From assembly GCA_023267195.1 (NCBI GenBank), contig JAHFNT010000005.1:14875-78874 (forward strand): a stretch of DNA of 64,000 nucleotides, in the 5' to 3' direction. This document shows, piece after piece, positions 22,545 through 46,012 of this stretch. A model generated the notes under the pieces. It worked only from the letters and a program-made list of their open reading frames with translations. It ran no database searches and was not told the origin of the DNA. Each line of letters begins with the position of its first letter. The stretch's first letter is position 1. Source of the stretch: Candidatus Nomurabacteria bacterium. GTDB lineage: Bacteria > Patescibacteriota > Minisyncoccia > Phycocordibacterales > UBA9973. The translations under genes and the position numbers were made by a program.

Positions 22545-22573
22545 TTGACAATACCCCCTAGGGGGTATATACT
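22545..22573 (+). promoter_or_regulatory. sigma-70-like promoter carrying a CsoR-type operator
   Basis: TTGACA at 22545-22550. The 18-bp perfect palindrome ATACCCCCTAGGGGGTAT lies at 22551-22568. TATACT at 22568-22573, giving 17-bp spacing. It sits immediately upstream of csoR and closely resembles the B. subtilis copZA CsoR operator (TACCC...GGGTA). Confidence 0.7.
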
Positions 22574-22579
22574 TCCCCT

Positions 22580-22843
22580 ATGCACACAAATAAACAAAAA
22601 GTCATTCGCCGACTGAAGATTCTAGAAGGCCAAGTGCGGGGCTTGCAAAATATGGTTGAAAAAGATACTTACTGTATTGATGTCATAACGCAGACTTCTG
22701 CAGTGAAGCAGGGTCTTTCTAATGTTGAAGATATTTTGATGGATGGGCATTTGGGGCATTGTGTTATTAATCAAATCAAAAAAGGAGAAACAGCTAAAGC
22801 CAAAACGGAAATATTAAAAGTTTATAAATTAAAAAGAAAATAG
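22580..22843 (+). CDS. csoR: CsoR-family copper-sensing transcriptional repressor
   Basis: DUF156/CsoR fold: RLKILEGQVRGLQNMVEKDTYCIDVITQTSAVKQGL...HLGHCV with Cys and His ligands in the canonical positions. Confidence 0.85.
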   Translation: MHTNKQKVIRRLKILEGQVRGLQNMVEKDTYCIDVITQTSAVKQGLSNVEDILMDGHLGHCVINQIKKGETAKAKTEILKVYKLKRK

Positions 22844-22894: not shown

Positions 22895-25219
22895 ATGAAC
22901 ACATTTAAAACATACAAGGTAAAAGGAATGCATTGCGCGTCTTGCGCCAGTATTATTGAAAGAACTATCAAGAAAATTGAGGGGGTAGCAAATATTGAGG
23001 TGAATCCGGGCACCGAAAATGCCAAGATTTCTTTTGATACAAACAAAACCAACGCGGAACAATTTAATCAAAAACTTGAACCACTTGGTTACTCGCTACA
23101 CAATATGAACATGTCAGCAAACGCTTCGGCTGTGCTCAGTGCAAGTGATATGAATATGAGTGAAGATGAACATAAAGAGCATTTGGGACTGAATCAAACT
23201 AAAAAAGAAAAGTTGGCAGAACTGAAGGACATGAAGAATAAACTTCTTTCTCTAATTCCTATTGTGCTCATTAGTATTTTTGTAATGAGTTACGATATTT
23301 TGGCGCAGTTTAAAGTTATTGCCGAGATGTCTTATTTCTGGAATGAATTTTTCCATCATCTTTTACCAGTTTTGGCCACTTACACGCTATTTGTAGTTGG
23401 TAAGCCATACTTACTCGGCTTATATCGTTTTTTTCGTCATGGACAAGCCAACATGGACACACTTATTGGTCTCGGTACGCTAGTGGCTTTTTTATATAGT
23501 TTTATTGTTAGCGCTTTTGAAGAAAGTTTAAAGGCTTTTATAAATGTCAATCAAAGTTATTACGATGTTACTATCATTGTGATTGCTTTCATTACACTTG
23601 GAAAATATCTGGAAGCGCGTTCAAAATTAAAAACAGGCGATGCGATTGAAAAACTTTTAAATCTACAGGCGAAAACTGCTTTAGTGGTTCGCGGTGAAAG
23701 GGAAGTTGAAATTCCGGTAGATCAAGTTATGCATGGTGATATTATTATCGTAAAACCCGGGGCAAAAATTCCAGTTGATGGCCTGATTGTTTCAGGATTT
23801 TCTTATGTTGATGAATCAATGGTGACCGGCGAACCAATGCCAGTAGAAAAAAAAGAGGGAGATGCTGTAGTATCTGGGACGATTAATACAACGGGATCTT
23901 TCACTTTTAGGGCGACGAAAGTTGGTGGAGAAACTCTGCTTGCCCATATTGTGAAAATGGTGGAAGAAGCACAAGGGAGTAAGGCACCGATACAGGCTTT
24001 GGCGGACAAAATTTCCAGTATCTTTGTGCCGGTTGTTTTGGGGATTGCAGTTTTGACTTTAGTGTTATGGCTTTTAGTTGGTATGCAATATTTTGGTTTC
24101 TCCCAAGCGCTTTCTTTTGGTTTGGTTTCTTTTGTGGGGATTTTGGTTATTGCATGTCCATGCGCTCTCGGTCTGGCGACACCGACGGCAATCATTGTTG
24201 GTGTAGGCAAAGGTGCGCGCGAAGGAATTTTAATCAAAGATGCGGCAACATTGCAAAAATTACACCAAGTCAATGTAGTTGTCGTGGATAAAACAGGTAC
24301 TTTGACTATGGGGAAACCCGAGCTTATTGCAGTTAAAAATTTTTCAAATAAAAATGATGATGAGCTGGTTTCTATTCTGGCCACTTTAGAAAATAAATCA
24401 GAACACCCTATTGCTCACGCCGTAATAAATTATGCAAAATCAAAAAAGCTAAAAATTAGCGAGCTGAATGATTTTGAAATTATAAAGGGCAAAGGACTTA
24501 AAGGAAGGGTTGACGGGGTAGAATATTTTGCTGGTAATACTAGACTAATTGAGGATCTAAATCTGCCGTTTGATAAAAATCTTTTGGAAAAAGAAACCTT
24601 GGAAGGCAAGACCCCGATAATTTTGGCGAATCAAAATGCAGTGCTCTGTGTGGTTTTGATAGCGGACGCGATAAAACCGGAAGCGATCGAGGCAGTAAAT
24701 AATTTACACAAACTCGGCGTCAAAATTGTGATGTTGACAGGAGACCATAAAAATACTGCTAAATATATTGCGAAGCTTGTCGGTATTGATGATATCGTGT
24801 CGGAAGCAATGCCGGAGAGTAAATTAGATAAAATCAAAGAATTGCAAGCGGAAGGCCAGGTCGTGGCGATGGCTGGAGATGGAGTAAATGACGCACCGGC
24901 GCTCGCGCAAGCGGATGTGGGTATTGCTATGGCTACTGGGACAGATGTGGCGATTGAAAGCGCTGGCATTACACTTCTACATGGCGATATTTCCAAACTA
25001 GTGAAAGCTATAAAACTTTCTAAAATGACAATGCGTGGAATCAAGCAGAATCTTTTCTGGGCTTTTGTTTATAATATTATTGGAATTCCGCTCGCATCTG
25101 GAATTTTCTTCCCATTCTTTGGTTGGTTGCTTTCGCCAGTCTTTGCTGGGTTTGCCATGGCGATGTCTTCAGTGTCTGTGGTAGGGAATTCGCTTCGCAT
25201 TAAGAGTAAAAAATTGTAA
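22895..25219 (+). CDS. copA: copper-translocating P1B-type ATPase
   Basis: N-terminal HMA domain (GMHCASCAS), TM CPC motif ([11 protein letters not shown]), DKTGTLT phosphorylation site, GDGVNDAP hinge. Confidence 0.92.
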
Positions 25220-25388: not shown

Positions 25389-25793
25389 ATGTATTTACGG
25401 AACAGAAAATTATTCATAGGTGTTTGCATTTTACTTGCTTATATAAGCATTGGAGTATTTGGCTTGCTTAAGCTTGACCATAAGATTGAAATGCCTATGG
25501 ATAATTGTCCGTATGCCCAAAATAGTTATGCAATATGTGAGAATAGTCTTGACCATATAAATAACTGGCAGCAATTTTTAAACGCAATTTCGCCATCTCT
25601 TTTCATATTTTCAATTTTAATTCTAGGAATAGTTTTATATTTAGTTACCAAACACAATTTTTTAAATCAAAAAAGTTATTTTTATAAATGGAAGTATTGC
25701 TTATATAATAAAAAATTATATCCTTACTCGAACATAATAATAAAATGGCTAGCATTTTTTGAAAACAGCCCTTCCTTTTTCTACAGGGCGTAG
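25389..25793 (+). CDS. hypothetical membrane protein (2 TM, CPYAQNSYAIC motif)
   Basis: ORF only. Very AT-rich. No family recognised. Confidence 0.3.
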   Translation: MYLRNRKLFIGVCILLAYISIGVFGLLKLDHKIEMPMDNCPYAQNSYAICENSLDHINNWQQFLNAISPSLFIFSILILGIVLYLVTKHNFLNQKSYFYKWKYCLYNKKLYPYSNIIIKWLAFFENSPSFFYRA

Positions 25794-25877: not shown

Positions 25878-26411
25878 ATGGACAAAAAAACAATTATCTC
25901 GTTATTAATTATCTTTGCTTTTGTTGGAGGTTTAGCGTGGTGGAGTAAATCAGTATCAATAGAAGAAAAAGAATCTCGCGCATTTGAACTTGGGGGTTCG
26001 CATCTGGTAAAAATTGGCAATACGGCAAATGTGCTTACTGCCATGGAAACCTTCTATGACTTCGGTACGATCTCCATGAAGAACGGGAATGTGAGCAAAA
26101 TATTCAAGCTAACTAATTCAACAAACGAAGATATATTGGTGCCGAGCGTAAGTACTTCCTGCATGTGTACTACCGCGTATGTACTCAAGGGTGGGGTAAG
26201 AAGCAGGCCTTATGGAATGCCGGGGCACGGTGGAGCGGTTCCGAAGGCAAATGAAATTGTAAAAGCGGGCGAATCGCTTGAGATTGAAGTAGTATATGAT
26301 CCCAATGCTCACGGTCCTGCTGGTGTCGGTTTGATTGAGCGCTCTGTGTTCGTGGAAGACGAGAATACAAATGTAACAGAACTCAAGTTCAAGGTTAACG
26401 TAACCCCATAA
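25878..26411 (+). CDS. DUF1573 domain-containing exported protein
   Basis: N-terminal TM/signal. FYDFGTISMKNGNVSKIFKLTNSTNEDILVPSVSTSCMCT matches the DUF1573 core (FDFGTI...F.F.NTG...L.I..V..SCGCT). Confidence 0.65.
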   Translation: MDKKTIISLLIIFAFVGGLAWWSKSVSIEEKESRAFELGGSHLVKIGNTANVLTAMETFYDFGTISMKNGNVSKIFKLTNSTNEDILVPSVSTSCMCTTAYVLKGGVRSRPYGMPGHGGAVPKANEIVKAGESLEIEVVYDPNAHGPAGVGLIERSVFVEDENTNVTELKFKVNVTP

Positions 26412-26415
26412 AAAT

Positions 26416-27195
26416 ATGAAAAAAATTATTATTATAATCAGCCTTGTGCTAATCGCCATAATTGGCATAGTTATTCTAAAAAACAATCCCGCAACTTCGG
26501 CTATTGTTTGGAACATAAGCAAAGAAGGTACCTGGCTTTTGCCGCTTCTTTTAGTGTCGGCGATTCTAGACAGCGTGCATCCTTGTTCGTTCTCAATTCT
26601 GCTGATCACAATAGCATTTCTGTTTGGTATTCAACTTAGCCGAGAGAAAATTCTTAAATTGGGCGGAACATACATTGCTGGAATATTCACAGCCTATTTC
26701 TTGATTGGGTTGGGAATTCTGAAAGTACTTCACTTGTTCAATACTCCACACTTCATGGGTAAATTAGGATCAACACTTCTGATTACTTTCGGAGTGATAA
26801 ATATTCTAAATCGTTTTTTCCCGAAATTTCCAATCAAGTTAAAGATTCCTGGAATTTCTCACTCGGCGATGGGTCGCTTGATGGACAGAGCTTCATTTCC
26901 AGCAGTATTTGGGCTCGGATTGCTTGTCGGTATTTGCCAATTCCCATGTATGGGTGGCCCGTATCTTATGGTTATCGGGCTCTTGCGTGATCAAGTGACA
27001 TATTTGAGCGGATTTAACTACCTTCTCTTGTATAATCTTATCTTAATTATTCCTCTGGTTGTGGTGTTATTTATCTCAGCTGATAAGTTACTGGTGGAAA
27101 AAGTGCAAATTTGGAAACGCGACAATTTAGGCGGATTAAAACTCTGGACCGGTATTGCGATGATTATTATTGGTATCTTAATATTCCTTATCTAA
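26416..27195 (+). CDS. ccdA: cytochrome c-type biogenesis / thiol-disulfide transmembrane electron transporter, CcdA (DsbD family)
   Basis: Polytopic. Two conserved Cys motifs in TM helices (DSVHPCSFSILL and GICQFPCMGGPY), typical of CcdA/DsbD beta. Confidence 0.7.
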   Translation: MKKIIIIISLVLIAIIGIVILKNNPATSAIVWNISKEGTWLLPLLLVSAILDSVHPCSFSILLITIAFLFGIQLSREKILKLGGTYIAGIFTAYFLIGLGILKVLHLFNTPHFMGKLGSTLLITFGVINILNRFFPKFPIKLKIPGISHSAMGRLMDRASFPAVFGLGLLVGICQFPCMGGPYLMVIGLLRDQVTYLSGFNYLLLYNLILIIPLVVVLFISADKLLVEKVQIWKRDNLGGLKLWTGIAMIIIGILIFLI

Positions 27196-27199
27196 ATAT

Positions 27200-27694
27200 A
27201 TGACTAAAAAAATAATAGAAATAGATGAATTTATAAATAAAATAAATTCACTCAAAGAAAAAGTGGGGGTGGACATATCAACCGCCGAAGACCTGAGTAT
27301 GGCTGTGATGAATCTAATTAGCCTTGAAGAACATTTCTTTTTTACTGGCGTTAAAACAGGCAAGGATGAATATTTTGACACAACACTTGAAATACGCGAG
27401 GTGAGAAAAGACTTATTGGCCAAACTTATGCCAAATAATGAAGGCGAGACCTGGTGTATCTCAAAACACCTGTTGGCCACGACCATGCGACTTATAGAAG
27501 TTGGGAACAAACTTAATTCCGAGGGTAAAAAAGAGAAAGCCAAAGAAATCTTTCAAAAAGCGTACCAAGTATATTCGATTTTCTGGGCGCTTAAATTGAA
27601 ATTAATCAGTGGGGAGAAAATACAACAAAAAGCTAAAGACAGTTCGCGTTTGGAAGACTTGGTCGATAAATTAGCTGACTGTTGTGATGAATAG
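27200..27694 (+). CDS. hypothetical cytoplasmic protein ending in Cys-Cys-Asp-Glu
   Basis: 164 aa, no TM, C-terminal ...LADCCDE. Co-oriented and tightly packed within the metal island. Confidence 0.4.
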   Translation: MTKKIIEIDEFINKINSLKEKVGVDISTAEDLSMAVMNLISLEEHFFFTGVKTGKDEYFDTTLEIREVRKDLLAKLMPNNEGETWCISKHLLATTMRLIEVGNKLNSEGKKEKAKEIFQKAYQVYSIFWALKLKLISGEKIQQKAKDSSRLEDLVDKLADCCDE

Positions 27695-28382
27695 ATTAAA
27701 TATGAAAAATAAAATAAAAGAAATACTATATTCAGTTCTGGCTATTATTGTGATCGTATTCTTGGGTCTTGCCCCTATGGGAGAAAAAGCATTTGCCCTA
27801 AATTGGGGCAACCTGGGAATGAAAATGATGGAAGCGGGTGTGATTGATCAAGAGAAATTTGAAAATCTGTATCAGGAACGAGGTGGGCTTAACGAGGCGG
27901 ATAAAAAGTTACTCTATAGTGCGCGCAATAAAAATCTAATTATCACCCCGGAGAATTCTCACATGATGCTCAATATGCTCTGGGCCTTAGGGCTCGGAAA
28001 TAAAAATCCCATTCTTGAAAATGGGCCAATGATGGACCCACGATATGGGGGAGCAGCGAATTTCGCATCTACCGGTGGCTGGATCCTGGCTAAAGGAAAC
28101 GCAATGGATCATTACAGTATGCATGAGTTCATAAAATTAACACCCGAAGAGCAAGGGCTAGTGGAAAAAGTGGCCAAAAATATTTATCGTCCTTGCTGTA
28201 GTAATCCAGCGTATTTTCCGGATTGTAATCATGGTATGGCGATGCTAGGACTTCTTGAAATGATGGCTTCGCAAGGCGCAGCGGAAGAAGAAATGTATAA
28301 ACTTGCGACAGAAGTAAATACTCTTTGGTTTCCAGAATTACAAAAGCAACAACAAAAAGGTGGGACAGGTTGTGGAGCTTAA
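27684..28382 (+). CDS. membrane-anchored exported protein with RPCCSNP...DCNHG cysteine motif
   Basis: N-terminal TM anchor. Soluble domain with CC-X10-C-X-H and a C-terminal GGTGCGA. No family recognised. Overlaps the upstream ORF by 11 nt; an alternative ATG lies at 27702. Confidence 0.45.
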   Translation: MMNRLNMKNKIKEILYSVLAIIVIVFLGLAPMGEKAFALNWGNLGMKMMEAGVIDQEKFENLYQERGGLNEADKKLLYSARNKNLIITPENSHMMLNMLWALGLGNKNPILENGPMMDPRYGGAANFASTGGWILAKGNAMDHYSMHEFIKLTPEEQGLVEKVAKNIYRPCCSNPAYFPDCNHGMAMLGLLEMMASQGAAEEEMYKLATEVNTLWFPELQKQQQKGGTGCGA

Positions 28383-28388
28383 GTTTTT

Positions 28389-29441
28389 GTGATAAGATGT
28401 ATCTTTATTATGAGATATTATACATTTCATGTTCAAGGCACTCATTGCGCATCGTGTAAAATCTTAATTGAAGATGTTTTGGAAGAGCAAGATTTTATCA
28501 AAAGGGTGCAGGTGAATCTAAAAAGAGAAATAGTGGAAATAGAAACGGAAAGCGAAAAGAGCCCAGAAGAACTTATTGCAATCTTAAATCCAAAAATAAA
28601 ACAAAATGGCTATGTGCTTTCTCTAGATGGTTCGGCTCCTCTCACCACAGGAAAAAATACAGAAATAAAAAATGACAACAATGTGCTTTGGCAAGCGATA
28701 CCCATCGGACTTGTATTCTTAGCGTTGTTTTTTTTATTACAAAAATCTGGCATTTTAGATCTTGGCTTTGGGGGCGAGACGACGCCAGCGACCAGTTTTC
28801 TTATTGGTTTGATCGCCTCAGTTTCGAGTTGTCTGGCGGTCGTTGGTGGCTTGGTTTTGTCTTTATCCGCCAAGATATCAGAAGATGATGAAAGCGACAC
28901 AAAAACTTTTATACTTTTTCACTCCGGTAGATTGTTTAGTTTTGCCATTTTAGGTGGGGCGCTAGGATTAATAGGCAACGCTATTGGTATTAATTTTACC
29001 TTTACGGCAATATTGGGTTTGGTCGCGTCTTTAGTGATGCTATTTCTTGGTTTGAATTTAGTGGGCGTGTTTACTAAAAATAAAATAACTTTGCCGTCTG
29101 GAATTTTTAACTTCTTTAGAAAAATTGAGCACAAGACTTTTACTCCGCTCATTATTGGTTTTGCCACTTTTTTTCTGCCATGCGGATTTACCCAATCAAT
29201 GCAAGTTGTTGCACTCTCCAGCGGATCATTTGTGTCTGGGCTCTTAATTATGTTGGCTTTTGCTTTAGGAACTTTGCCTATGCTTTTATTATTATCGTTC
29301 GGGTCAGCGTCTTTTGCCCATTCAAAATATGCGCCGCTATTTTTCAAATCAGCTGGAGTGGTGGTAATAGGTCTAGGAGTATTTGCGCTGCTTGCAGGGT
29401 TGGCTGGTTTGGGAATTATAAATCCACTATTTAATATTTGA
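28389..29441 (+). CDS. HMA (heavy-metal-associated) domain fused to a DsbD_2/TauE-SafE-like polytopic permease
   Basis: N-terminal YTFHVQGTHCASCKILIE is an HMA fold with a CxxC metal site. Followed by ~8 TM helices with Cys-bearing motifs (SSCLAVVGG, FFLPCGFTQS) as in the PF13386-type family. Confidence 0.6.
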   Translation: MIRCIFIMRYYTFHVQGTHCASCKILIEDVLEEQDFIKRVQVNLKREIVEIETESEKSPEELIAILNPKIKQNGYVLSLDGSAPLTTGKNTEIKNDNNVLWQAIPIGLVFLALFFLLQKSGILDLGFGGETTPATSFLIGLIASVSSCLAVVGGLVLSLSAKISEDDESDTKTFILFHSGRLFSFAILGGALGLIGNAIGINFTFTAILGLVASLVMLFLGLNLVGVFTKNKITLPSGIFNFFRKIEHKTFTPLIIGFATFFLPCGFTQSMQVVALSSGSFVSGLLIMLAFALGTLPMLLLLSFGSASFAHSKYAPLFFKSAGVVVIGLGVFALLAGLAGLGIINPLFNI

Positions 29442-29462
29442 TTTGCTATAATTAACTATCTT

Positions 29463-29837
29463 ATGAATAAAACAGTTTCAATCATAATTACATTAGGGCT
29501 CGTTGTTGCCATCGCGATTATTTTTACCGGCGGGGGAGATAAGTTTGCAGAAAAGGTAGAAATAAGGGATGGGGTTCAATATGTCACAGTTAATGCTAAG
29601 GGTGGGTATTTCCCTAGGGTTTCAAATGCCAAAGCTGGCATTCCGACTAAACTGCTGGTGAAGACTAGTGGTACTTATGACTGTTCAGCTTCTTTGGTGA
29701 TTAAGTCCATTAATTATCAAAAAATTCTTCCCCAAAATGGAGTGACTGAAATTGATATTGGCACACCCGGGGCGGGTAAACCCCTCCAGGGAGTGTGTGG
29801 AATGGGAATGTATAGTTTTCAAGTTAATTTTCAATAG
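29463..29837 (+). CDS. cupredoxin-like (PF13473-type) exported protein
   Basis: N-terminal TM anchor. ~90-aa beta-rich domain with the C-terminal pattern C...C..GMGMY, reminiscent of Cupredoxin_1 domains (...C...GH..M). Confidence 0.45.
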   Translation: MNKTVSIIITLGLVVAIAIIFTGGGDKFAEKVEIRDGVQYVTVNAKGGYFPRVSNAKAGIPTKLLVKTSGTYDCSASLVIKSINYQKILPQNGVTEIDIGTPGAGKPLQGVCGMGMYSFQVNFQ

Positions 29838-29905: not shown

Positions 29906-31474
29906 ATGACTTTCATGCATAGGATCTTAAATTTCTTAAAAAATAAGAAGTATGTTTGTGGTGCTATTGCGCTAGCCCTGGTAATTGGCGGTATATTTGT
30001 GTTCAAAAATAATAAAGTAGCGAACGATACTCTCATAGTCCACTCAGCTGATTTCGTGAATCAGGTTTCGGTTTCTGGAAAAGTTGTAGCGTCGGATGAT
30101 GTTAGTCTTGGTTTTTCACAAGGTGGCAGAATAGCTTCCGTCCGTTTTAAGGTTGGTGATATTGTCACCGATGGAACACTTTTAGCTAGTGTGGAAAATG
30201 GAGATTTACGGGCTGATTTAACTCAAAAAGAAGCGGCTCTAGAAAAAGTACAGGCAGATTTAAAATCTTTGCAAATTGGGACTAGGCCGGAACAAATTGC
30301 TATTACAGAATCTGCGCTTGCAAGCGCAGAGACCGCTTTCGGTCAAGCGGGGCAGGGTGTTGTTAATTCTATCAACGATGCTTATACAAAATCAGACGAT
30401 GCGATTAAAAACAAAATAGACCAATTTTTTAGAAATCCATTATCTAATGATCCATATATCAGGTTGTCTGTGGATGACAACCTTCTGATATCTTCAGTCA
30501 ATCAAGAAAGAAAAGCTGTTGGTTTGACTCTTGCATCATGGGAAAAATCTGTTTTAGAAATGAATTCAGGGACGAATTTAGATAAATATATTTCTGAGGC
30601 AGAAAAAAATATGAATCAACTCAAAACATTTTTGGCGAAAGTTTCTTTGATTACCAATGATCCTGAAGTTACGTATGATGGGAATAATACTATTCCAAGT
30701 ACTTGGAAAACTGACACCTCAACAGCCCGATTGGCGGTTGATACGGCGGTTTCAAGTTTAGCTTCTGCTGTTACTTCATATAGAAGCGCCGAGTCTGATC
30801 TTATTACCAAGCAAAATAATTTAAAACTTGAACAAGCTGGATCGACACAAGAAGAGTTGGATGCAAAAACGGCAGAGATCAAGGGGGCAGAAGCAAGTGT
30901 TTTGAGCGCGAAAGCCAATTTACAGAAAACCTTAATTGTTGCTCCGTTCGATGGGATAATAACAAAAATAGATGCAAAGATTGGAGAAGTTGCATCTGCT
31001 AATGTTTCTGTTGTGGAGATGATGAGTGTAGGAACTTTCCAAATAGAAAGCTATGTGCCGGAAATTAATATCGCCTTAATTAAACTCGGCAATGATGCTG
31101 ATGTTACCCTAGATGCTTACGGCGAGAGTGTGTTGTTTAAAGCAAAAGTTGTTTCCATTGATCCAGCTGAAACAATTCGCGACGGAGTTTCTACTTACAA
31201 AATAAAACTTCAATTCAGTGAGAAGGATGAACGTATAAAATCTGGAATGACAGCTAATGTTTCTATTACGGTTTTCAACAAGCCTGGCGTGATAGCCATT
31301 CCTGGAGGAATTGTTTTTGAGAAAGAAGGAAAAAAATTTGTACAAGTAAAAGTTGATGAAGTGGTAGAAGACAAGGAAGTAATTCTCGGAAGTGTTTCTG
31401 CTCTAGGCAAAGTTGAGGTTGTTTCCGGCTTGGTGGATGGCGATATGGTTATTCTTAATCCGGAAATAAAATAA
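29906..31474 (+). CDS. HlyD/MacA-type periplasmic adaptor (membrane fusion protein)
   Basis: N-terminal TM, biotin-lipoyl-like hairpin (TLLASVENGDL), long coiled coils, C-terminal beta-barrel/MPD. Confidence 0.75.
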   Translation: MTFMHRILNFLKNKKYVCGAIALALVIGGIFVFKNNKVANDTLIVHSADFVNQVSVSGKVVASDDVSLGFSQGGRIASVRFKVGDIVTDGTLLASVENGDLRADLTQKEAALEKVQADLKSLQIGTRPEQIAITESALASAETAFGQAGQGVVNSINDAYTKSDDAIKNKIDQFFRNPLSNDPYIRLSVDDNLLISSVNQERKAVGLTLASWEKSVLEMNSGTNLDKYISEAEKNMNQLKTFLAKVSLITNDPEVTYDGNNTIPSTWKTDTSTARLAVDTAVSSLASAVTSYRSAESDLITKQNNLKLEQAGSTQEELDAKTAEIKGAEASVLSAKANLQKTLIVAPFDGIITKIDAKIGEVASANVSVVEMMSVGTFQIESYVPEINIALIKLGNDADVTLDAYGESVLFKAKVVSIDPAETIRDGVSTYKIKLQFSEKDERIKSGMTANVSITVFNKPGVIAIPGGIVFEKEGKKFVQVKVDEVVEDKEVILGSVSALGKVEVVSGLVDGDMVILNPEIK

Positions 31475-31475
31475 T

Positions 31476-32732
31476 ATGTTTTCCTCATTAAATATTCGTA
31501 TTGGATTTTTCCTGGCGAAGCGTCAGATAAGGAGGTCAAATCCATGGACCACTGTACTCATAATTTTTGTGATGTTTTTTACTTTTCTAAATTTGGTGGT
31601 GGTAAGTGGAATTTTAGTCGGACTTATCCAGGGGGCAATCGATGCTGTGCGTACTCACTACACAAGCGATGTGATTATTTCCTCACTCAATAATAAAACT
31701 TATATAGAAAACAGTCCCGAAGTTTTAAGCATTGTTAAATCGATACCAGAGATAGAAGTTTTTTCTGCACGATACTTAGATGGAGGCACACTAGAGGCAA
31801 ATTATAAAACGCGGACAAATGAAAAAGAAAAACCAAACACGGCGGTAGCTTCAATAACAGGCATAGATCCAATTGCAGAGAACGAGGTGACGAATCTTTC
31901 CAAGTTTATAGTAGAAGGTGAGTATTTAGCGCCAGGAGACTATGATCAGGTGCTCTTGGGGGCTTATCTTGATAAAAAATATTTGCCGATTGATTCTCCT
32001 GGGTTTTCTGCGCTTAATAATGTTGAACCAGGTACTAAAATTAGGCTGAAAGTTCATGGGGTGGAACGCGAAGTTACTATTAAAGGTATTATAAAGGCAA
32101 AAGTCGATGAACTTAGTATGAGAGTATTCATGGTTGATTCTCAGCTGCGTAGTATGATTGGGCGCAATGATTATAATGTGGCCGAAATATCTATAAAATT
32201 AAAACCAGGGACTGATCCCAATATAGTTCGAGATATTTTAAAACTAAATGGAGTTGATAAAGTTGCCAAAGTTCAGACCTATGCCGATGCTCAGCCGAAA
32301 TTTATTAAAGATATGGTGGACACTTTTGCTTTGCTTGGAAACATGCTTTCCTCTATCGGGCTAGTAGTTGCTTCCATTACGATTTTTATCGTGATTTTTA
32401 TTAACGCCATAACCAGAAGGAAATTCATCGGCATTTTAAAGGGAATTGGTATTAACGAAAGAGCTATTGAAATATCGTATATTTTGCAATCTTTCTTTTA
32501 TGCATTTTGCGGTTCGCTTGTGGGTATTATTGTGCTTTATGCATTTCTCCAACCGTTTATGTCGGCGCACCCAATCGATTTTCCTTTTAGTGACGGAATT
32601 CTGGTAGCTCCAATCAGTGGTACGATAGCACGCATAGCTCTGTTGATGATTACTACGATTGTTGCCGGTTTCATTCCAGCCCGTCTGGTCGTTCGCAAGA
32701 ATACACTAGATTCAATATTAGGCAGAAATTAA
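31476..32732 (+). CDS. ABC transporter permease, MacB/FtsX family
   Basis: N-terminal TM, large extracytoplasmic MacB_PCD-like domain, C-terminal FtsX 3-TM bundle. Confidence 0.75.
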   Translation: MFSSLNIRIGFFLAKRQIRRSNPWTTVLIIFVMFFTFLNLVVVSGILVGLIQGAIDAVRTHYTSDVIISSLNNKTYIENSPEVLSIVKSIPEIEVFSARYLDGGTLEANYKTRTNEKEKPNTAVASITGIDPIAENEVTNLSKFIVEGEYLAPGDYDQVLLGAYLDKKYLPIDSPGFSALNNVEPGTKIRLKVHGVEREVTIKGIIKAKVDELSMRVFMVDSQLRSMIGRNDYNVAEISIKLKPGTDPNIVRDILKLNGVDKVAKVQTYADAQPKFIKDMVDTFALLGNMLSSIGLVVASITIFIVIFINAITRRKFIGILKGIGINERAIEISYILQSFFYAFCGSLVGIIVLYAFLQPFMSAHPIDFPFSDGILVAPISGTIARIALLMITTIVAGFIPARLVVRKNTLDSILGRN

Positions 32733-32742
32733 TTGAGAATTT

Positions 32743-33417
32743 ATGATTGAAGTAAAAAATTTAAAAAAATCATTCAAAGATGGGGAAAGTATCACCGAAG
32801 TCTTGAAAGGAATAGATTTTGTGGCCAAAAGCGGAGAATTTGTTGCTATCATGGGACGTTCAGGCGCCGGCAAAAGTACCTTTCTTTATCAAATGAGCCT
32901 TCTGGACGAGCCGACAAGTGGAGAGATTCTTATTGATGGAAAAAATGTTTCTTCTTTGACGGTAGGCGAAAAAACAAACTTCCGTCTTTCTGATTTAGGA
33001 TATGTTTTTCAAGATTATGCCCTGCTTCCAGAAATGACCGCATTAGAAAATGTCGCCTTGCCGCTTTTAATGCAAGGTTTCAGTGAAAAAAAAGCATTAG
33101 AAAAAGCGACAGAACATTTGATTTTGGTCGGTCTTGGAGAAAGATTAAAGAATTTACCAAGCCAACTTTCTGGCGGAGAACAACAGAGGGTAAGTGTTGC
33201 GCGGGCTATCGCTCATGAGCCGAAAATTTTATTCGCTGACGAACCAACAGCTAACCTAGATAATGAATCATCTCGCGTTATTATGAATATTTTGAAAGAG
33301 TTGCACAAGGAAGGACAAACGATAATAATGGTTACGCACGAAGTTGAATATAGCAAATTTGCAGAACGCATAATTCACCTAGATGATGGGAAAATAGTCT
33401 CTATTGATAAAAATTAA
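32743..33417 (+). CDS. ABC transporter ATP-binding protein (MacB/LolD-like)
   Basis: Walker A GRSGAGKST, signature LSGGEQQRVSVARA, Walker B ILFADEPT, H-loop. Confidence 0.9.
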   Translation: MIEVKNLKKSFKDGESITEVLKGIDFVAKSGEFVAIMGRSGAGKSTFLYQMSLLDEPTSGEILIDGKNVSSLTVGEKTNFRLSDLGYVFQDYALLPEMTALENVALPLLMQGFSEKKALEKATEHLILVGLGERLKNLPSQLSGGEQQRVSVARAIAHEPKILFADEPTANLDNESSRVIMNILKELHKEGQTIIMVTHEVEYSKFAERIIHLDDGKIVSIDKN

Positions 33418-43162: not shown

Positions 43163-46012
43163 ATGAGGTTGTATGATCATAAGAAAATAGAGAAAAAATG
43201 GCAAAATATTTGGGAGAAAAAGGGGATTTATCATGCTATAGACCCGGTCAAGGGCGGGGCAAGTAAACCAAAAAAGCCCAAATATTATAGCTTGATAGAA
43301 TTTCCATATCCCTCAGGGGATGGTTTGCATGTGGGTCATCCCAGGCCATATATCGGGATGGATATAATCTCAAGGAAAAGAAGGCTGCAGGGTTTTAATG
43401 TTTTGTACCCGATCGGCTGGGATGCGTTTGGTCTTCCGACGGAAAACTTTGCCATAAAGACAGGTAAGGATCCACGATTTGTTACGAAGAAAAATAGCGA
43501 AAATTTCAAACAACAGATACAATCGCTTGGAATTTCTTTTGATTGGTCTCGAGAAATAAATACAACTGATCCGAAATATTATAAATGGACACAGTGGATA
43601 TTTTTGCAGTTTTTGAAGAAAGGATTGGCCTATAAGGCCAAAATGAATATCAACTGGTGTCCGAAGGACAAGATCGGTCTTGCGAATGAAGAAGTTATAG
43701 GCGGTTGTTGCGAGCGATGTGGGGCACAGGTAGAAAAAAGAGAGAAAGAGCAGTGGGTGTTGGCGATCACTAAATATGCAGAGCGTTTAGATAAAGACTT
43801 AGATGGTGTGGATTATTTGCCACAAATTAAACTTGCTCAAAGAAATTGGATAGGGAAGTCGGAGGGTGCGGAGATAGAATTTAAGATTACGGATTATGAG
43901 TTAAAAATTAAAGTTTTCACCACTCGTCCCGATACTATTTTCGGCGCGACTTATGTTGTTTTAGCACCGGAACACCAATTGATCAATGACCTAAAATCAA
44001 GAATTTCCAACTGGACTGAAGCGGAAGATTATATTAAAAAAACAAAACAAGAAACAGAGATAGAGCGCACGGCAGAAAATAAAACAAAAACAGGAGTAGA
44101 GTTAAAAGGGGTAAAGGCGATCAATCCCGGGAGCAAAGAAGAAATTCCTATCTGGATTGCCGACTATGTGCTTGCAAATTATGGCACAGGGGCTATCATG
44201 GCTGTGCCGGCGCACGATGAAAGGGATTTTGAATTTGCGAAGAAATATAATTTGGAGATAAAGCAAGTCATTCAACCAATTTTTGGTATAGAAAATAAAA
44301 GAAAAGAAGCAGTACACAGAAACACTATTACTGGTATTGTGAAAAGTCGTGACGGGAAGAAAATTTTAATGTTAAAATGGAAAGATTATGATTGGTTAAG
44401 TGGTGTAATAGGAGGTATTGAGGGTGATGAGTCTCCAGAACAAGCAGCGGAGCGAGAAGTGTTAGAAGAAACAGGATATAAAACTAAAGCTATTTTTGTT
44501 TCCCCAATAAAAGTTGAATCGCATTTTTTTGCTGAACATAAAAATGAATGGCGTTCGAGGATAGACACCCCAGTTGTTTTGGAGTTGGTGGATGAGAAGC
44601 CAGAAATAATTTCCGAGAAAGAACAAGCAAAACATGAGGTAAGGTGGGTTGATATAAAAGAAGTTTTTGCTTCAACTATGTTTGGAAACAATAAACTTGC
44701 AATAGAATTAGCACTTTCACGAAGTGCCTATACTGGTTTTAATGGAGACCAAAGAGACTCCTTAATAAATTCTGGCAGATTTGATGGAATGGATTCCCAA
44801 AAAGCCAAGAAAGAAATTATAAAATTTGTTGAGGGAAAAGAAAAAACCACTTTCAAGCTTCGCGACTGGATATTTTCCCGTCAGCGATATTGGGGTGAGC
44901 CGATACCGGTTGTACGATGCGAGAAATGCGGGTTAGTTCCTGTGCCGGAGAAGGATCTGCCAGTAGAACTTCCAAAAGTGAAAAATTATCAGCCGACGGA
45001 TAGCGGAGAATCGCCACTCGCAAATATTTCAAAATGGGTCAATACTAAATGTCCTAAATGTAAAGGCAACGCAAAAAGGGAAACAGATACCATGCCAAAC
45101 TGGGCAGGATCCAGTTGGTATTATTTACGATACACAGATCCCAAAAATTCTAAAGAGTTTGCTGGTAAGAAAAATTTGAAATATTGGACGCCGGTAGATT
45201 GGTATAACGGAGGAAATGAACACACCACACTTCATCTTTTATATTCACGTTTTTGGCATAAATTTTTATATGATTTGAAACTAGTGCCCACAAGCGAGCC
45301 CTACATGAAACGTACCTCGCATGGGATGATTTTAGGCGAGGGGGGCGTAAAGATGTCCAAATCGCTAGGTAATGTCATAAATCCGGACGAAATGGTAAAA
45401 ATTTACGGCGCGGATACGCTTCGCATCTATGAGATGTTTATGGGGCCATTTGATCAATCTGTAGCTTGGTCTACAGAAAGTATTATTGGCGCGAGGAGAT
45501 TTATAGAAAAAATTTGGCGGTTGCAATTTAAGGTGGGTAAAACAAGCGATAGTGGAATAAAGAAAATTTTAAATAAAACCATAAAAAAAGTTTCTGAAGA
45601 TATTGAGAATATGAATTTTAATACAGCAATTTCTTCTATGATGATCTTGGCAACTGAGATAGAAAATGAAAAAAGTGTCTCAAGAGAAGACTATAAAAAA
45701 TTCTTGCAAATACTTTCTCCCTTTGCGCCGCATATAACCGAAGAATTGTGGAGCTTGCTCGGAGAGAAAAAATCTATCAATCTTTCCACTTGGCCAAAAG
45801 TGGATGAAACTTTTCTCAAGGATGAAGAAATTAAAATCGTGATTCAGATCAATGGCAAAGTCAGAGCGCAAATTATTGTGAAAGCTTCTGATCCAGAAGA
45901 AAAGATAAAAGAAAGAGTTTTTAGCGACCCCAGCGTGTTAAAACATTTAGGGAACAAGGGGATCAAAAGAACAATTTACATTAAAAATAGACTTATCAAC
46001 CTTGTGGTTTGA
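43163..46012 (+). CDS. leuS: leucyl-tRNA synthetase with an inserted Nudix hydrolase domain
   Basis: HIGH motif HVGHPRPY, KMSKS (VKMSKSLGN), CP1 editing TTRPDT...AVPAHDERD, and a LeuRS C-terminus. An extra ~150 aa (nt ~44295-44765) contains the Nudix box GGIEGDESPEQAAEREVLEETGY. Confidence 0.9.
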   Translation: MRLYDHKKIEKKWQNIWEKKGIYHAIDPVKGGASKPKKPKYYSLIEFPYPSGDGLHVGHPRPYIGMDIISRKRRLQGFNVLYPIGWDAFGLPTENFAIKTGKDPRFVTKKNSENFKQQIQSLGISFDWSREINTTDPKYYKWTQWIFLQFLKKGLAYKAKMNINWCPKDKIGLANEEVIGGCCERCGAQVEKREKEQWVLAITKYAERLDKDLDGVDYLPQIKLAQRNWIGKSEGAEIEFKITDYELKIKVFTTRPDTIFGATYVVLAPEHQLINDLKSRISNWTEAEDYIKKTKQETEIERTAENKTKTGVELKGVKAINPGSKEEIPIWIADYVLANYGTGAIMAVPAHDERDFEFAKKYNLEIKQVIQPIFGIENKRKEAVHRNTITGIVKSRDGKKILMLKWKDYDWLSGVIGGIEGDESPEQAAEREVLEETGYKTKAIFVSPIKVESHFFAEHKNEWRSRIDTPVVLELVDEKPEIISEKEQAKHEVRWVDIKEVFASTMFGNNKLAIELALSRSAYTGFNGDQRDSLINSGRFDGMDSQKAKKEIIKFVEGKEKTTFKLRDWIFSRQRYWGEPIPVVRCEKCGLVPVPEKDLPVELPKVKNYQPTDSGESPLANISKWVNTKCPKCKGNAKRETDTMPNWAGSSWYYLRYTDPKNSKEFAGKKNLKYWTPVDWYNGGNEHTTLHLLYSRFWHKFLYDLKLVPTSEPYMKRTSHGMILGEGGVKMSKSLGNVINPDEMVKIYGADTLRIYEMFMGPFDQSVAWSTESIIGARRFIEKIWRLQFKVGKTSDSGIKKILNKTIKKVSEDIENMNFNTAISSMMILATEIENEKSVSREDYKKFLQILSPFAPHITEELWSLLGEKKSINLSTWPKVDETFLKDEEIKIVIQINGKVRAQIIVKASDPEEKIKERVFSDPSVLKHLGNKGIKRTIYIKNRLINLVV

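Follow-up and report, generated by a model that had tools for sequence, protein, structure and literature searches.

A pair of cysteine-motif proteins in a copper operon of Candidatus Nomurabacteria: a candidate route for copper or reducing equivalents across the membrane

What do two adjacent genes, each encoding a protein with a vicinal cysteine pair and neither belonging to a recognisable family, contribute to a copper operon of a candidate-phylum bacterium? The question is raised by a 64,000-nucleotide stretch of DNA from a Candidatus Nomurabacteria bacterium (GenBank assembly GCA_023267195.1, contig JAHFNT010000005.1, positions 14,875 to 78,874 of the forward strand), called the window here, with positions counted from its first letter. 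Two open reading frames (ORFs) on its + strand encode a cytoplasmic protein with a Cys-Cys tail (protein A) and an exported protein with a Cys loop (protein B). A first-pass annotation of the letters had located both ORFs correctly, together with the flanking genes for a CcdA protein (26416-27195) and a permease with an HMA domain (HMA-DsbD_2, 28410-29441), and had suggested that A, B and CcdA could form a trans-membrane metal/thiol relay. The pair most likely moves copper, or the electrons needed for binding copper, across the membrane; that A, B and the CcdA-like protein form a chain of cysteine sites crossing the membrane with Cu(I) as cargo is given a probability of about 0.4.

Neither family had been recognised at first sight, and this holds for database comparison, as A has no match to Pfam-A, NCBIfam models or PDB sequences and B has none to Pfam-A (E ≤ 0.1), NCBIfam models or PDB sequences. 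Relatives of A form 4036 clusters and those of B 6683 clusters at 90% identity in a collection of 5.8 billion proteins, and an exhaustive scan of 1.84 billion representatives gave 460 clusters at 50% identity for B. At least 589 species-level genomes (one genome per species) encode B, the best 80 all belonging to the Candidate Phyla Radiation (CPR). Named relatives of A and B, with lineages as given in the sequence records, come from Patescibacteria/CPR (Nomurabacteria, Paceibacterota, Sungbacteria, and others); Pfam domains are absent from all of them. At least one B clade occurs in Chloroflexota. Thousands of homologs keep the Cys and His motifs, which are invariant or nearly so in both families; a lack of Cys conservation, which would have told against the relay proposal, is clearly not what is seen.

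Protein A contains no hydrophobic segment and is soluble and cytoplasmic. It starts 4 nt past the CcdA-like gene, and its stop codon (27692-27694) overlaps a possible start of B. The AlphaFold2 model (mean predicted local distance difference test score, pLDDT, 81.9) is a four-helix bundle followed by a low-confidence, flexible acidic tail that reads ...KLADCCDE, with the codons of the Cys pair at 27680-27685. A third conserved Cys and a His, absent from the first-pass annotation, lie in the motif ETWCISKH (C86, 27455-27457; H90, 27467-27469). Among homologs the LEEH motif (residues 42-45) is kept in 86/86, EGETWC..KH in 85/86 and the CC pair in all top matches. The possibility that A is a CsoR-like DNA-binding copper sensor was rejected, given that a real csoR gene is present and that a membrane protein fills the slot of A elsewhere. 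A separate observation is that A is 72–87% identical across differently named CPR lineages, an unusually high value for genomes so divergent, which points to very strong constraint or else to the copper island having spread laterally.

Protein B corresponds to a mechanical ORF at 27684-28382 and to a database gene call starting at the ATG at 27687 (231 aa, P0121); its homologs begin at the methionine of MKNKIKE, and the start codon may therefore be at 27702. A single N-terminal hydrophobic helix (about 27723-27779) followed by AFA|L indicates that B is exported or membrane-anchored. Beyond it come an all-alpha N-domain of about 110 residues, carrying W..GL and ASTGGW, for which no recognisable relatives were found, a three-helix domain (about 28134-28331) and a Gly-rich tail. 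The central motif is R-P-C-C-x8-C-N-H-G (RPCCSNPAYFPDCNHG), a loop running from R168-P-C170-C171 to D179-C180-N-H182-G at 28188-28235. The first-pass annotation had written it as RPCCSNP-X8-DCNHG; the cysteines are as it described, and the spacing is not, the eight residues separating the CC pair from the third Cys. Across 135 sequences sharing 31–74% identity the only invariant residues are R168, C170, C171, D179, C180, N181, H182 and G183, while P169, N173, F177, P178, W99-x2-G-L, A127-S-T-G-G-W132 and C229 exceed 90% conservation. C229 (28371-28373), a fourth conserved Cys that had escaped notice before, stands three residues from the C-terminus (...GTGCGA), and in homologs a variable Gly-rich stretch always has this Cys 2–4 residues before its end. 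In the mostly helical AlphaFold2 model (mean pLDDT 86.8) the Cys loop (residues 164-180) sits between helix 153-163 and helices 181-195 and 200-214; C170, C171, C180, C229 and H182 are assumed to converge in the predicted fold. Some B homologs have a duplicated Gly-rich ...GGCGV arm (L076 9767-10798; P0325).

The relay proposal had leaned on the rarity of vicinal Cys pairs. In the 56 long ORFs of the window (20,101 aa, 0.69% Cys) about 0.95 CC dipeptides are expected and three are seen, two of them in the adjacent genes for A and B, which places the A/B pairs beyond chance. The remaining one is at residue 182 of a 949-aa ORF (43163-46012).

The only known fold that B resembles in structural comparison is that of CcmH/NrfF (PF03918; PDB 2hl7, 2kw0). 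When the B domain was aligned by hhalign with a profile of 68 of the 104 PF03918 sequences collected, a weak match was obtained (P 0.014, 60 co-linear columns), the reversed-profile control giving P 0.52 over 13 columns. The alignment puts R-P-C-C-x-N....D-C-N-H of B on R-C-P-K-C-Q-N....D-S-N-A of CcmH, and QG.SE.E on G.S..E, and only the second Cys of the CcmH L-R-C-x-x-C aligns, the first Cys of the CxxC being absent in B. A match to PF03918 was found in none of 135 diverse B members at E ≤ 5, Foldseek of B against PDB gave no match at E ≤ 0.001, CcmH included, and the B alignment did not match a single CcmH sequence in hhalign. A CcmH-like fold and remote CcmH homology are plausible, and B is not a member of the CcmH family since it has neither the CxxC motif nor a match to the family model. 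Compared with CcmH, B has a new Cys at the adjacent position and another at the serine of DSN, as well as a His; it is longer by a 110-residue N-domain and a Cys arm at the C-terminus, and its context is copper, not haem. Another exported protein to be compared with B is CopG (DUF411), a copper-resistance protein that is thioredoxin-like and binds a Cu4 cluster through CxCC (PMC7558416). Both are extracytoplasmic and equipped with a vicinal Cys pair and a nearby Cys; CopG is of thiol-oxidoreductase ancestry, as B may be, and binds copper with these cysteines. The two differ in fold, B having no DUF411 match and possessing a candidate His ligand and the Cys arm.

Two further identities for B were tried and rejected. 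A lysozyme- or transglycosylase-like N-domain, considered because of an E-N-S motif, found no structural match, and the residues are not conserved family-wide. The spacing C-C-x6-FP-x-C-x-H resembles the 3Cys-1His motif of CDGSH proteins, a likeness that counts as a lead only; a CDGSH-like Fe-S protein was discarded in view of the Sec-type anchor without twin arginine and the absence of a zf-CDGSH match.

The genetic setting of the pair is given in Table 1. The order csoR-copA-m134-DUF1573-CcdA-like-A-B-HMA/DsbD_2-cupredoxin-like has gaps of at most 27 nt from the DUF1573 gene onward. All the hallmarks of CsoR-type copper efflux are found: a CsoR, absent from the first-pass annotation, with Cu(I)-type Cys...His-x3-Cys ligands (YC...GHLGHC in the translation), a palindrome over the promoter, and a P1B-1 ATPase with CPC and HMA motifs. 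The palindrome, ATACCCCCTAGGGGGTAT, occurs once in the window and presumably resembles published CsoR operators; in 16 related loci TACCCC-N4-GGGGTA is found about 300 bp upstream of the ATPase gene. Judged by these sequence features, A and B belong to a copper-regulated or copper-stress operon, in which soft-metal motifs occur at every level (C-M-C, C..CGMGM, CxxC and CC).

Table 1. Coordinates of protein A, protein B and the other features of the copper operon in the window
Feature	Position	Strand	Description
Promoter-like site	22545-22573	+	TTGACA-17-TATACT, 11/12, best of region
Perfect 18-bp palindrome ATACCCCCTAGGGGGTAT	22551-22568		Predicted CsoR-type operator, between -35 and -10
csoR	22580-22843	+	phmmer match to a PF02583 protein of a related locus
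copA	22895-25219	+	P1B-type ATPase, N-terminal HMA domain (CASC), CPC membrane motif
m134	25389-25793	+	134 aa, two transmembrane (TM) segments, conserved outside loop MPMxNCPY...C
DUF1573 protein	25878-26411	+	Exported, Ig-like, motif TSCMCT
CcdA-like membrane protein	26416-27195	+	DsbD/LysE superfamily; invariant P56-C57, C174-x3-(P177)C178
Protein A	27200-27694	+	164 aa, cytoplasmic four-helix bundle, flexible C-terminal tail ...KLxDCC(D/N)E
Protein B	27687-28382	+	Membrane anchor/signal, all-alpha N-domain, CcmH-like three-helix domain, Gly-rich tail with C229
HMA-DsbD_2 protein	28410-29441	+	HMA (CASC) fused to DsbD_2 membrane domain with membrane Cys residues
Cupredoxin-like protein	29463-29837	+	Exported, C...C-G-M-G-M

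The coupling of these genes was examined in 80 CPR loci fetched through B and 80 metagenome loci fetched through A, in which ORFs were called mechanically, so the counts vary with phmmer thresholds and flank lengths. The order ATPase-m134-DUF1573-CcdA-like-(A)-B-HMA-DsbD_2-cupredoxin-like recurs among the 80 CPR loci. Co-occurrence with ccdA, which had been named as a check on the relay idea, is very strong: the CcdA-like gene is directly upstream of A in 49/56 informative loci, which makes it the tightest partner of A, and of the 40 loci that extend 3 kb or more to either side of B, 35 have a gene for a DsbD-type membrane protein no more than 3 kb away. In the same 40 loci an exported Cys partner is found within 4 kb of B in 37 and a CC-tail gene within 3 kb in 25. 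B follows A directly in at least 36 of 60 loci. A copper marker is present in 68/80 B loci and CopA in 51/80, and in Chloroflexota a B homolog stands directly after csoR, adjoining genes for YHS, HMA and CopA proteins. No ccm or ccs genes were seen among the neighbours identified in the operon and in the 160 related loci; copper genes were found instead.

The cytoplasmic module is interchangeable between genomes, being A, a second protein (A') or an HMA domain. A' is an unrelated 100–165-aa membrane protein that replaces A in the same slot in 27 loci; one TM helix opens on the cytoplasmic side with C-P-I-C-A-G, and a charged tail closes with ...E(L)EKKMK(D/N)CC. The Peregrinibacteria version of the CC-tail protein ends in CCKNW. 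The CC tail thus appears on three apparently unrelated scaffolds, and the conserved element is the tail (E/D)(L/I)xxK(L/M)x(D/N)CC, since different scaffolds carry it. In one fusion (P0249) A' is joined directly to the membrane helix of B, and in another (P0246) an HMA domain (GMTCPSC) is followed by one TM helix and then B. These fusions fix the topology, with the CC tail or HMA inside and B outside, and show that the CC-tail module and the HMA copper-binding domain occupy equivalent positions; together with the hydrophobicity of A and B they agree with the earlier proposal of one protein inside and one outside. B is also fused to rhodanese, cupredoxin or DsbC_N domains. Many long B homologs have an N-terminal domain of about 250 aa with four TM segments, recognised by eye, with conserved G-C-P-x-C-G and P-L-Q-G-L-[DE]-I-K (observed in P0271, P0316, P0342, P0318, P0279, and P0325); these long extensions have no Pfam match, and the domain perhaps represents a membrane Cys module of a third type that is joined to B.

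The CcdA-like protein of the window falls below Pfam thresholds, with no Pfam match and weak matches to ArsG and TsoB. Its orthologs match PF11139 (22/44) and PF02683 DsbD_TM (9/44, best 4.9e-8), which assigns it to the DsbD/LysE superfamily. Both halves of the membrane domain carry a P-C motif (P56-C57 and P177-C178) that is invariant or nearly invariant, as is C174. In the window this protein does not have the thioredoxin partners of CcdA: the outside protein is the DUF1573 protein with C-M-C, and the inside protein is A, a helical bundle. In homologs of the DUF1573 protein C-x-C is kept in 92/93, almost always as TSCMCT, and the protein is possibly a free-standing analogue of the Ig-like domain at the N-terminus of DsbD; it also weakly matches the OS_HP2 (seleno)protein model. 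In loci without the DUF1573 and CcdA-like genes, B is preceded or followed by another gene pair, which encodes a variant DsbD_TM CcdA whose cysteines form two vicinal pairs (APCC in TM1, (M/T)CCAP in TM4) and an exported AhpC/TSA-Redoxin protein with M-C-Y-P-A-C (CxxxC) and weak SCO1 similarity. Four membrane cysteines are unusual for CcdA (L015 8601-9982; L023 8295-9801; L076 10803-12328).

Compared with the described CcdA/DsbD/ScsB relays, including TlpA-ScoI and the S. pneumoniae-type CcdA with its surface thioredoxin, the module is alike in the P-C cysteines of two half-repeats and in the exported Cys partner encoded beside them, and the variant loci have a real DsbD_TM protein and a thioredoxin-family partner. 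Several such relays have links to copper tolerance, among them Scs, TlpA-ScoI and DsbDEG. The window differs in the missing Pfam match, in the third invariant Cys and in an Ig-like DUF1573 partner with C-M-C. To our knowledge, no described CcdA system encodes a dedicated cytoplasmic CC-tail protein beside it, unlike the present one with A.

The established parts are therefore a cytoplasmic CC-tail protein, a three-Cys membrane protein and exported proteins with C-M-C and CC..C.H..C, all in tight genetic coupling. If these form a Cu(I) chain, copper excess would cause CsoR to let go of the promoter, and the CC tail of A, perhaps with C86 and H90, would take up cytoplasmic Cu(I) in the manner of CopZ and pass it to the three-Cys site of the CcdA-like protein, from which it would reach the exported DUF1573 protein with C-M-C as well as B. 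B would keep Cu(I) in a Cys3-His site, its C-terminal Cys arm shuttling the ion in or out, and copper would stay bound outside the cell, beside the ATP-driven CopA and the parallel HMA-DsbD_2/cupredoxin-like unit. A more specific and rather doubtful version holds that candidate phyla have recruited proteins of the DsbD/CcdA superfamily to conduct Cu(I) along a lining of thiolates. This would be a "Mer system for copper" fed by a new class of cytoplasmic metallochaperones with ...K(L/M)x(D/N)CC tails on at least three unrelated scaffolds and discharging into a new extracytoplasmic Cys3-His copper protein derived from the CcmH fold, with a swinging Cys arm.

The comparison with Mer is one of logic. 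In the mercury relay, MerP is followed by MerT with a vicinal Cys pair and by MerA with an N-terminal HMA domain and a C-terminal Cys-Cys tail. The same arrangement of an outside thiol site, membrane cysteines (as vicinal pairs in the TM segments of the variant CcdA) and a flexible C-terminal vicinal pair inside is seen here, although none of the proteins is homologous to a Mer protein and neither MerA nor MerR was seen in the operon or in the neighbourhood tables of related loci. The metal is presumably Cu(I), because the regulator is CsoR and the pump a CPC-type ATPase.

Several features favour Cu(I) over electrons as cargo. Vicinal dithiols form strained disulfides and carry electrons poorly, and binding soft metals is a classic property of theirs, with the MerA tail and MerT as examples; the CC pairs thus suit soft metals better than electrons. 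In addition, HMA can replace the CC-tail module, the cysteines of the membrane proteins exceed what electron transfer requires, a Sco-type CxxxC is present in the thioredoxin-fold partner, and the HMA-DsbD_2/cupredoxin-like unit repeats the design with an undisputed metal domain. Other points weigh against a Cu(I) chain. For a passive outward relay no source of energy is obvious, and its work would repeat that of CopA; moreover, we know of no characterised DsbD_TM/CcdA protein that moves metal, all of them carrying reducing equivalents. The variant CcdA passes the PF02683 cut-off, and the best solved relatives of its exported partner are surface thioredoxin-family proteins, peroxiredoxins, and ResA. 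The fold comparison, proposed earlier as a check, yielded for B only a resemblance to CcmH, a thiol-disulfide oxidoreductase and not a metal protein, and the fusions of B to rhodanese and DsbC_N point the same way; A also has no adjacent B in about a third of the A-sampled loci. The relay of the first-pass annotation is accordingly upheld in part, in its topology, conservation and genetic coupling, and the csoR/operator/copA context makes the copper setting much firmer than that annotation had it; the relay would carry Cu(I) or reducing equivalents.

Reducing equivalents are the main alternative cargo, held with less confidence. The CcdA-type protein would send them outward to the exported Cys partner (DUF1573 in the window, a thioredoxin-family protein in variant loci) and then to B, which would be kept as thiolate for Cu(I) binding, as in TlpA-ScoI, or would repair wrong disulfides formed by copper catalysis, as in the envelope-disulfide repair of DsbC, Scs and P. 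aeruginosa DsbDEG; A and A' would be cytoplasmic adaptors or donors for the membrane protein. The CcdA, thioredoxin-like and CcmH-like components mirror the order DsbD-CcmG-CcmH, the P-C motifs of CcdA are kept, DsbD_TM matches exist, and the variant loci, with a thioredoxin-family protein and a bona fide DsbD_TM CcdA, point towards a redox relay, as do the DsbC_N and rhodanese fusions and a DsbA-like gene adjoining B in L070. There are precedents in TlpA, which reduces ScoI and CoxB before metallation (PMC7558416), and in a copper-induced dsbDEG operon required for copper resistance of P. aeruginosa (bioRxiv 10.1101/2020.08.17.255257). Such a relay leaves A unexplained. A, A' and HMA bear no likeness to thioredoxin, and for none of them is a connection to NADPH evident. 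The replacement of the CC-tail module by HMA argues for metal, the additional cysteines in the membrane (the CcdA-like protein has three, the variant CcdA two vicinal pairs) would be superfluous for electrons, the thioredoxin-fold partner has CxxxC instead of CxxC, and B is without the CxxC of CcmH.

It is improbable that the two proteins are a chaperone pair for CopA, in which A, A' or HMA would feed Cu(I) inside and B would receive it outside (as CopZ/CusF or PacL do), the CcdA-type system being a neighbour that keeps outside cysteines reduced and nothing more. Loci with the order ATPase-A-B or A-B-ATPase and no CcdA-like gene between or beside them (L035, L048) speak for it, as do the HMA-TM-B and A'-TM-B fusions, which put donor and acceptor on one chain, and the presence of CopA in 51/80 loci. 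PacL1, a partner of a P-ATPase in M. tuberculosis with a TM segment, a cytoplasmic helical region and a metal-binding motif at the C-terminus, offers an architectural precedent (PMC9374683). A' shares with PacL1 (DUF1490) the membrane helices, the charged cytoplasmic helix, a C-terminal motif that is a putative metal site and the operon with a P1B ATPase; the motif is Asp/His there and Cys-Cys here, A is soluble without a TM helix and has the CcdA-like gene as closest partner, and neither A nor A' matches DUF1490 in Pfam. Against a chaperone pair stand the own HMA domain of CopA and the far tighter tie of A to the CcdA-like gene (49/56) than to copA.

Still less likely is a structural role for the B cysteines, as two disulfides or a Cys3His zinc site, with A unrelated and the copper context a matter of hitch-hiking on a mobile island. 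Exported proteins often hold invariant disulfide cysteines, the N-domain of B has no recognised fold, and the 72–87% identity of A is compatible with island transfer. The B cysteines are nevertheless surrounded by invariant R, D, N and H, one of them stands at the end of a variable and sometimes duplicated Gly-rich arm, and the fusions to HMA, cupredoxin and rhodanese, the linkage to csoR in a different phylum and the CC tail on three scaffolds all argue otherwise. That B belongs to CcmH/NrfF as a true orthologue and acts alongside CcdA to mature c-type cytochromes is very improbable and was rejected, with 0/135 matching PF03918, no CxxC, no Foldseek match and copper genes as neighbours.

Literature searches turned up no description of this module in candidate phyla, nor any of DUF1573 with CcdA. 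Its themes are known (the CsoR/CopA regulon, DsbD-superfamily thiol proteins, a CcmH-like fold and Mer-like vicinal cysteines) and are newly arranged in new families. A and B are very widespread families without a name, a domain model or a structure, and their operon is among the few accessory operons kept by the very small genomes of Patescibacteria. If the Cu(I) relay is true, it would provide a metal conduit of the DsbD superfamily, a copper chaperone consisting of a bare Cys-Cys tail and a copper-binding domain derived from CcmH, extend the parts of bacterial copper handling and annotate thousands of "hypothetical proteins". If electrons are carried, the module would be a new copper-stress branch of the extracytoplasmic reducing pathways, in organisms without cytochromes to mature. 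It offers small soluble domains with clear Cys-to-Ser mutants, easily testable either way.

Other genes accompany the module in the window and in related loci. The m134 gene, for which no match to a known family was found, always comes after copA in related loci. The HMA-DsbD_2 and cupredoxin-like genes (28410-29837) stay together in many loci and make up a second Cys unit with inside, membrane and outside parts; the first keeps CxxC in its HMA domain, and cupredoxin-like homologs have C...C-x-M-x-M, most often CGMGM (23/34). After the copper genes, on the same strand and in the region 29906-33417, are HlyD-like (522 aa) and MacB-like (418 aa) genes followed by a 224-aa ORF (32743-33417), and HlyD/MacB homologs flank the copper island in a few related loci. 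Variable cargo is found between B and HMA-DsbD_2 in L008 (10675-14155) and L013 (7011-9791), including DUF3105, DUF305 and YibE/F proteins and small His-rich membrane proteins ending in ...GGCCH or ...HGCCH, another C-terminal vicinal-Cys tail. SHOCT-domain proteins occur in the islands, as scanned in L017 (2128-2376). In L054 (8311-9801), L048 (3253-4792) and L066 (1590-2581), of Peregrinibacteria-type and other origin, the CC-tail gene is preceded by a CopG/DUF411-like candidate with CGCC and GMPxGSPGM, judged by eye, and also by a membrane protein of no known family in which a helix begins with A-H-C-P-L-C-T.

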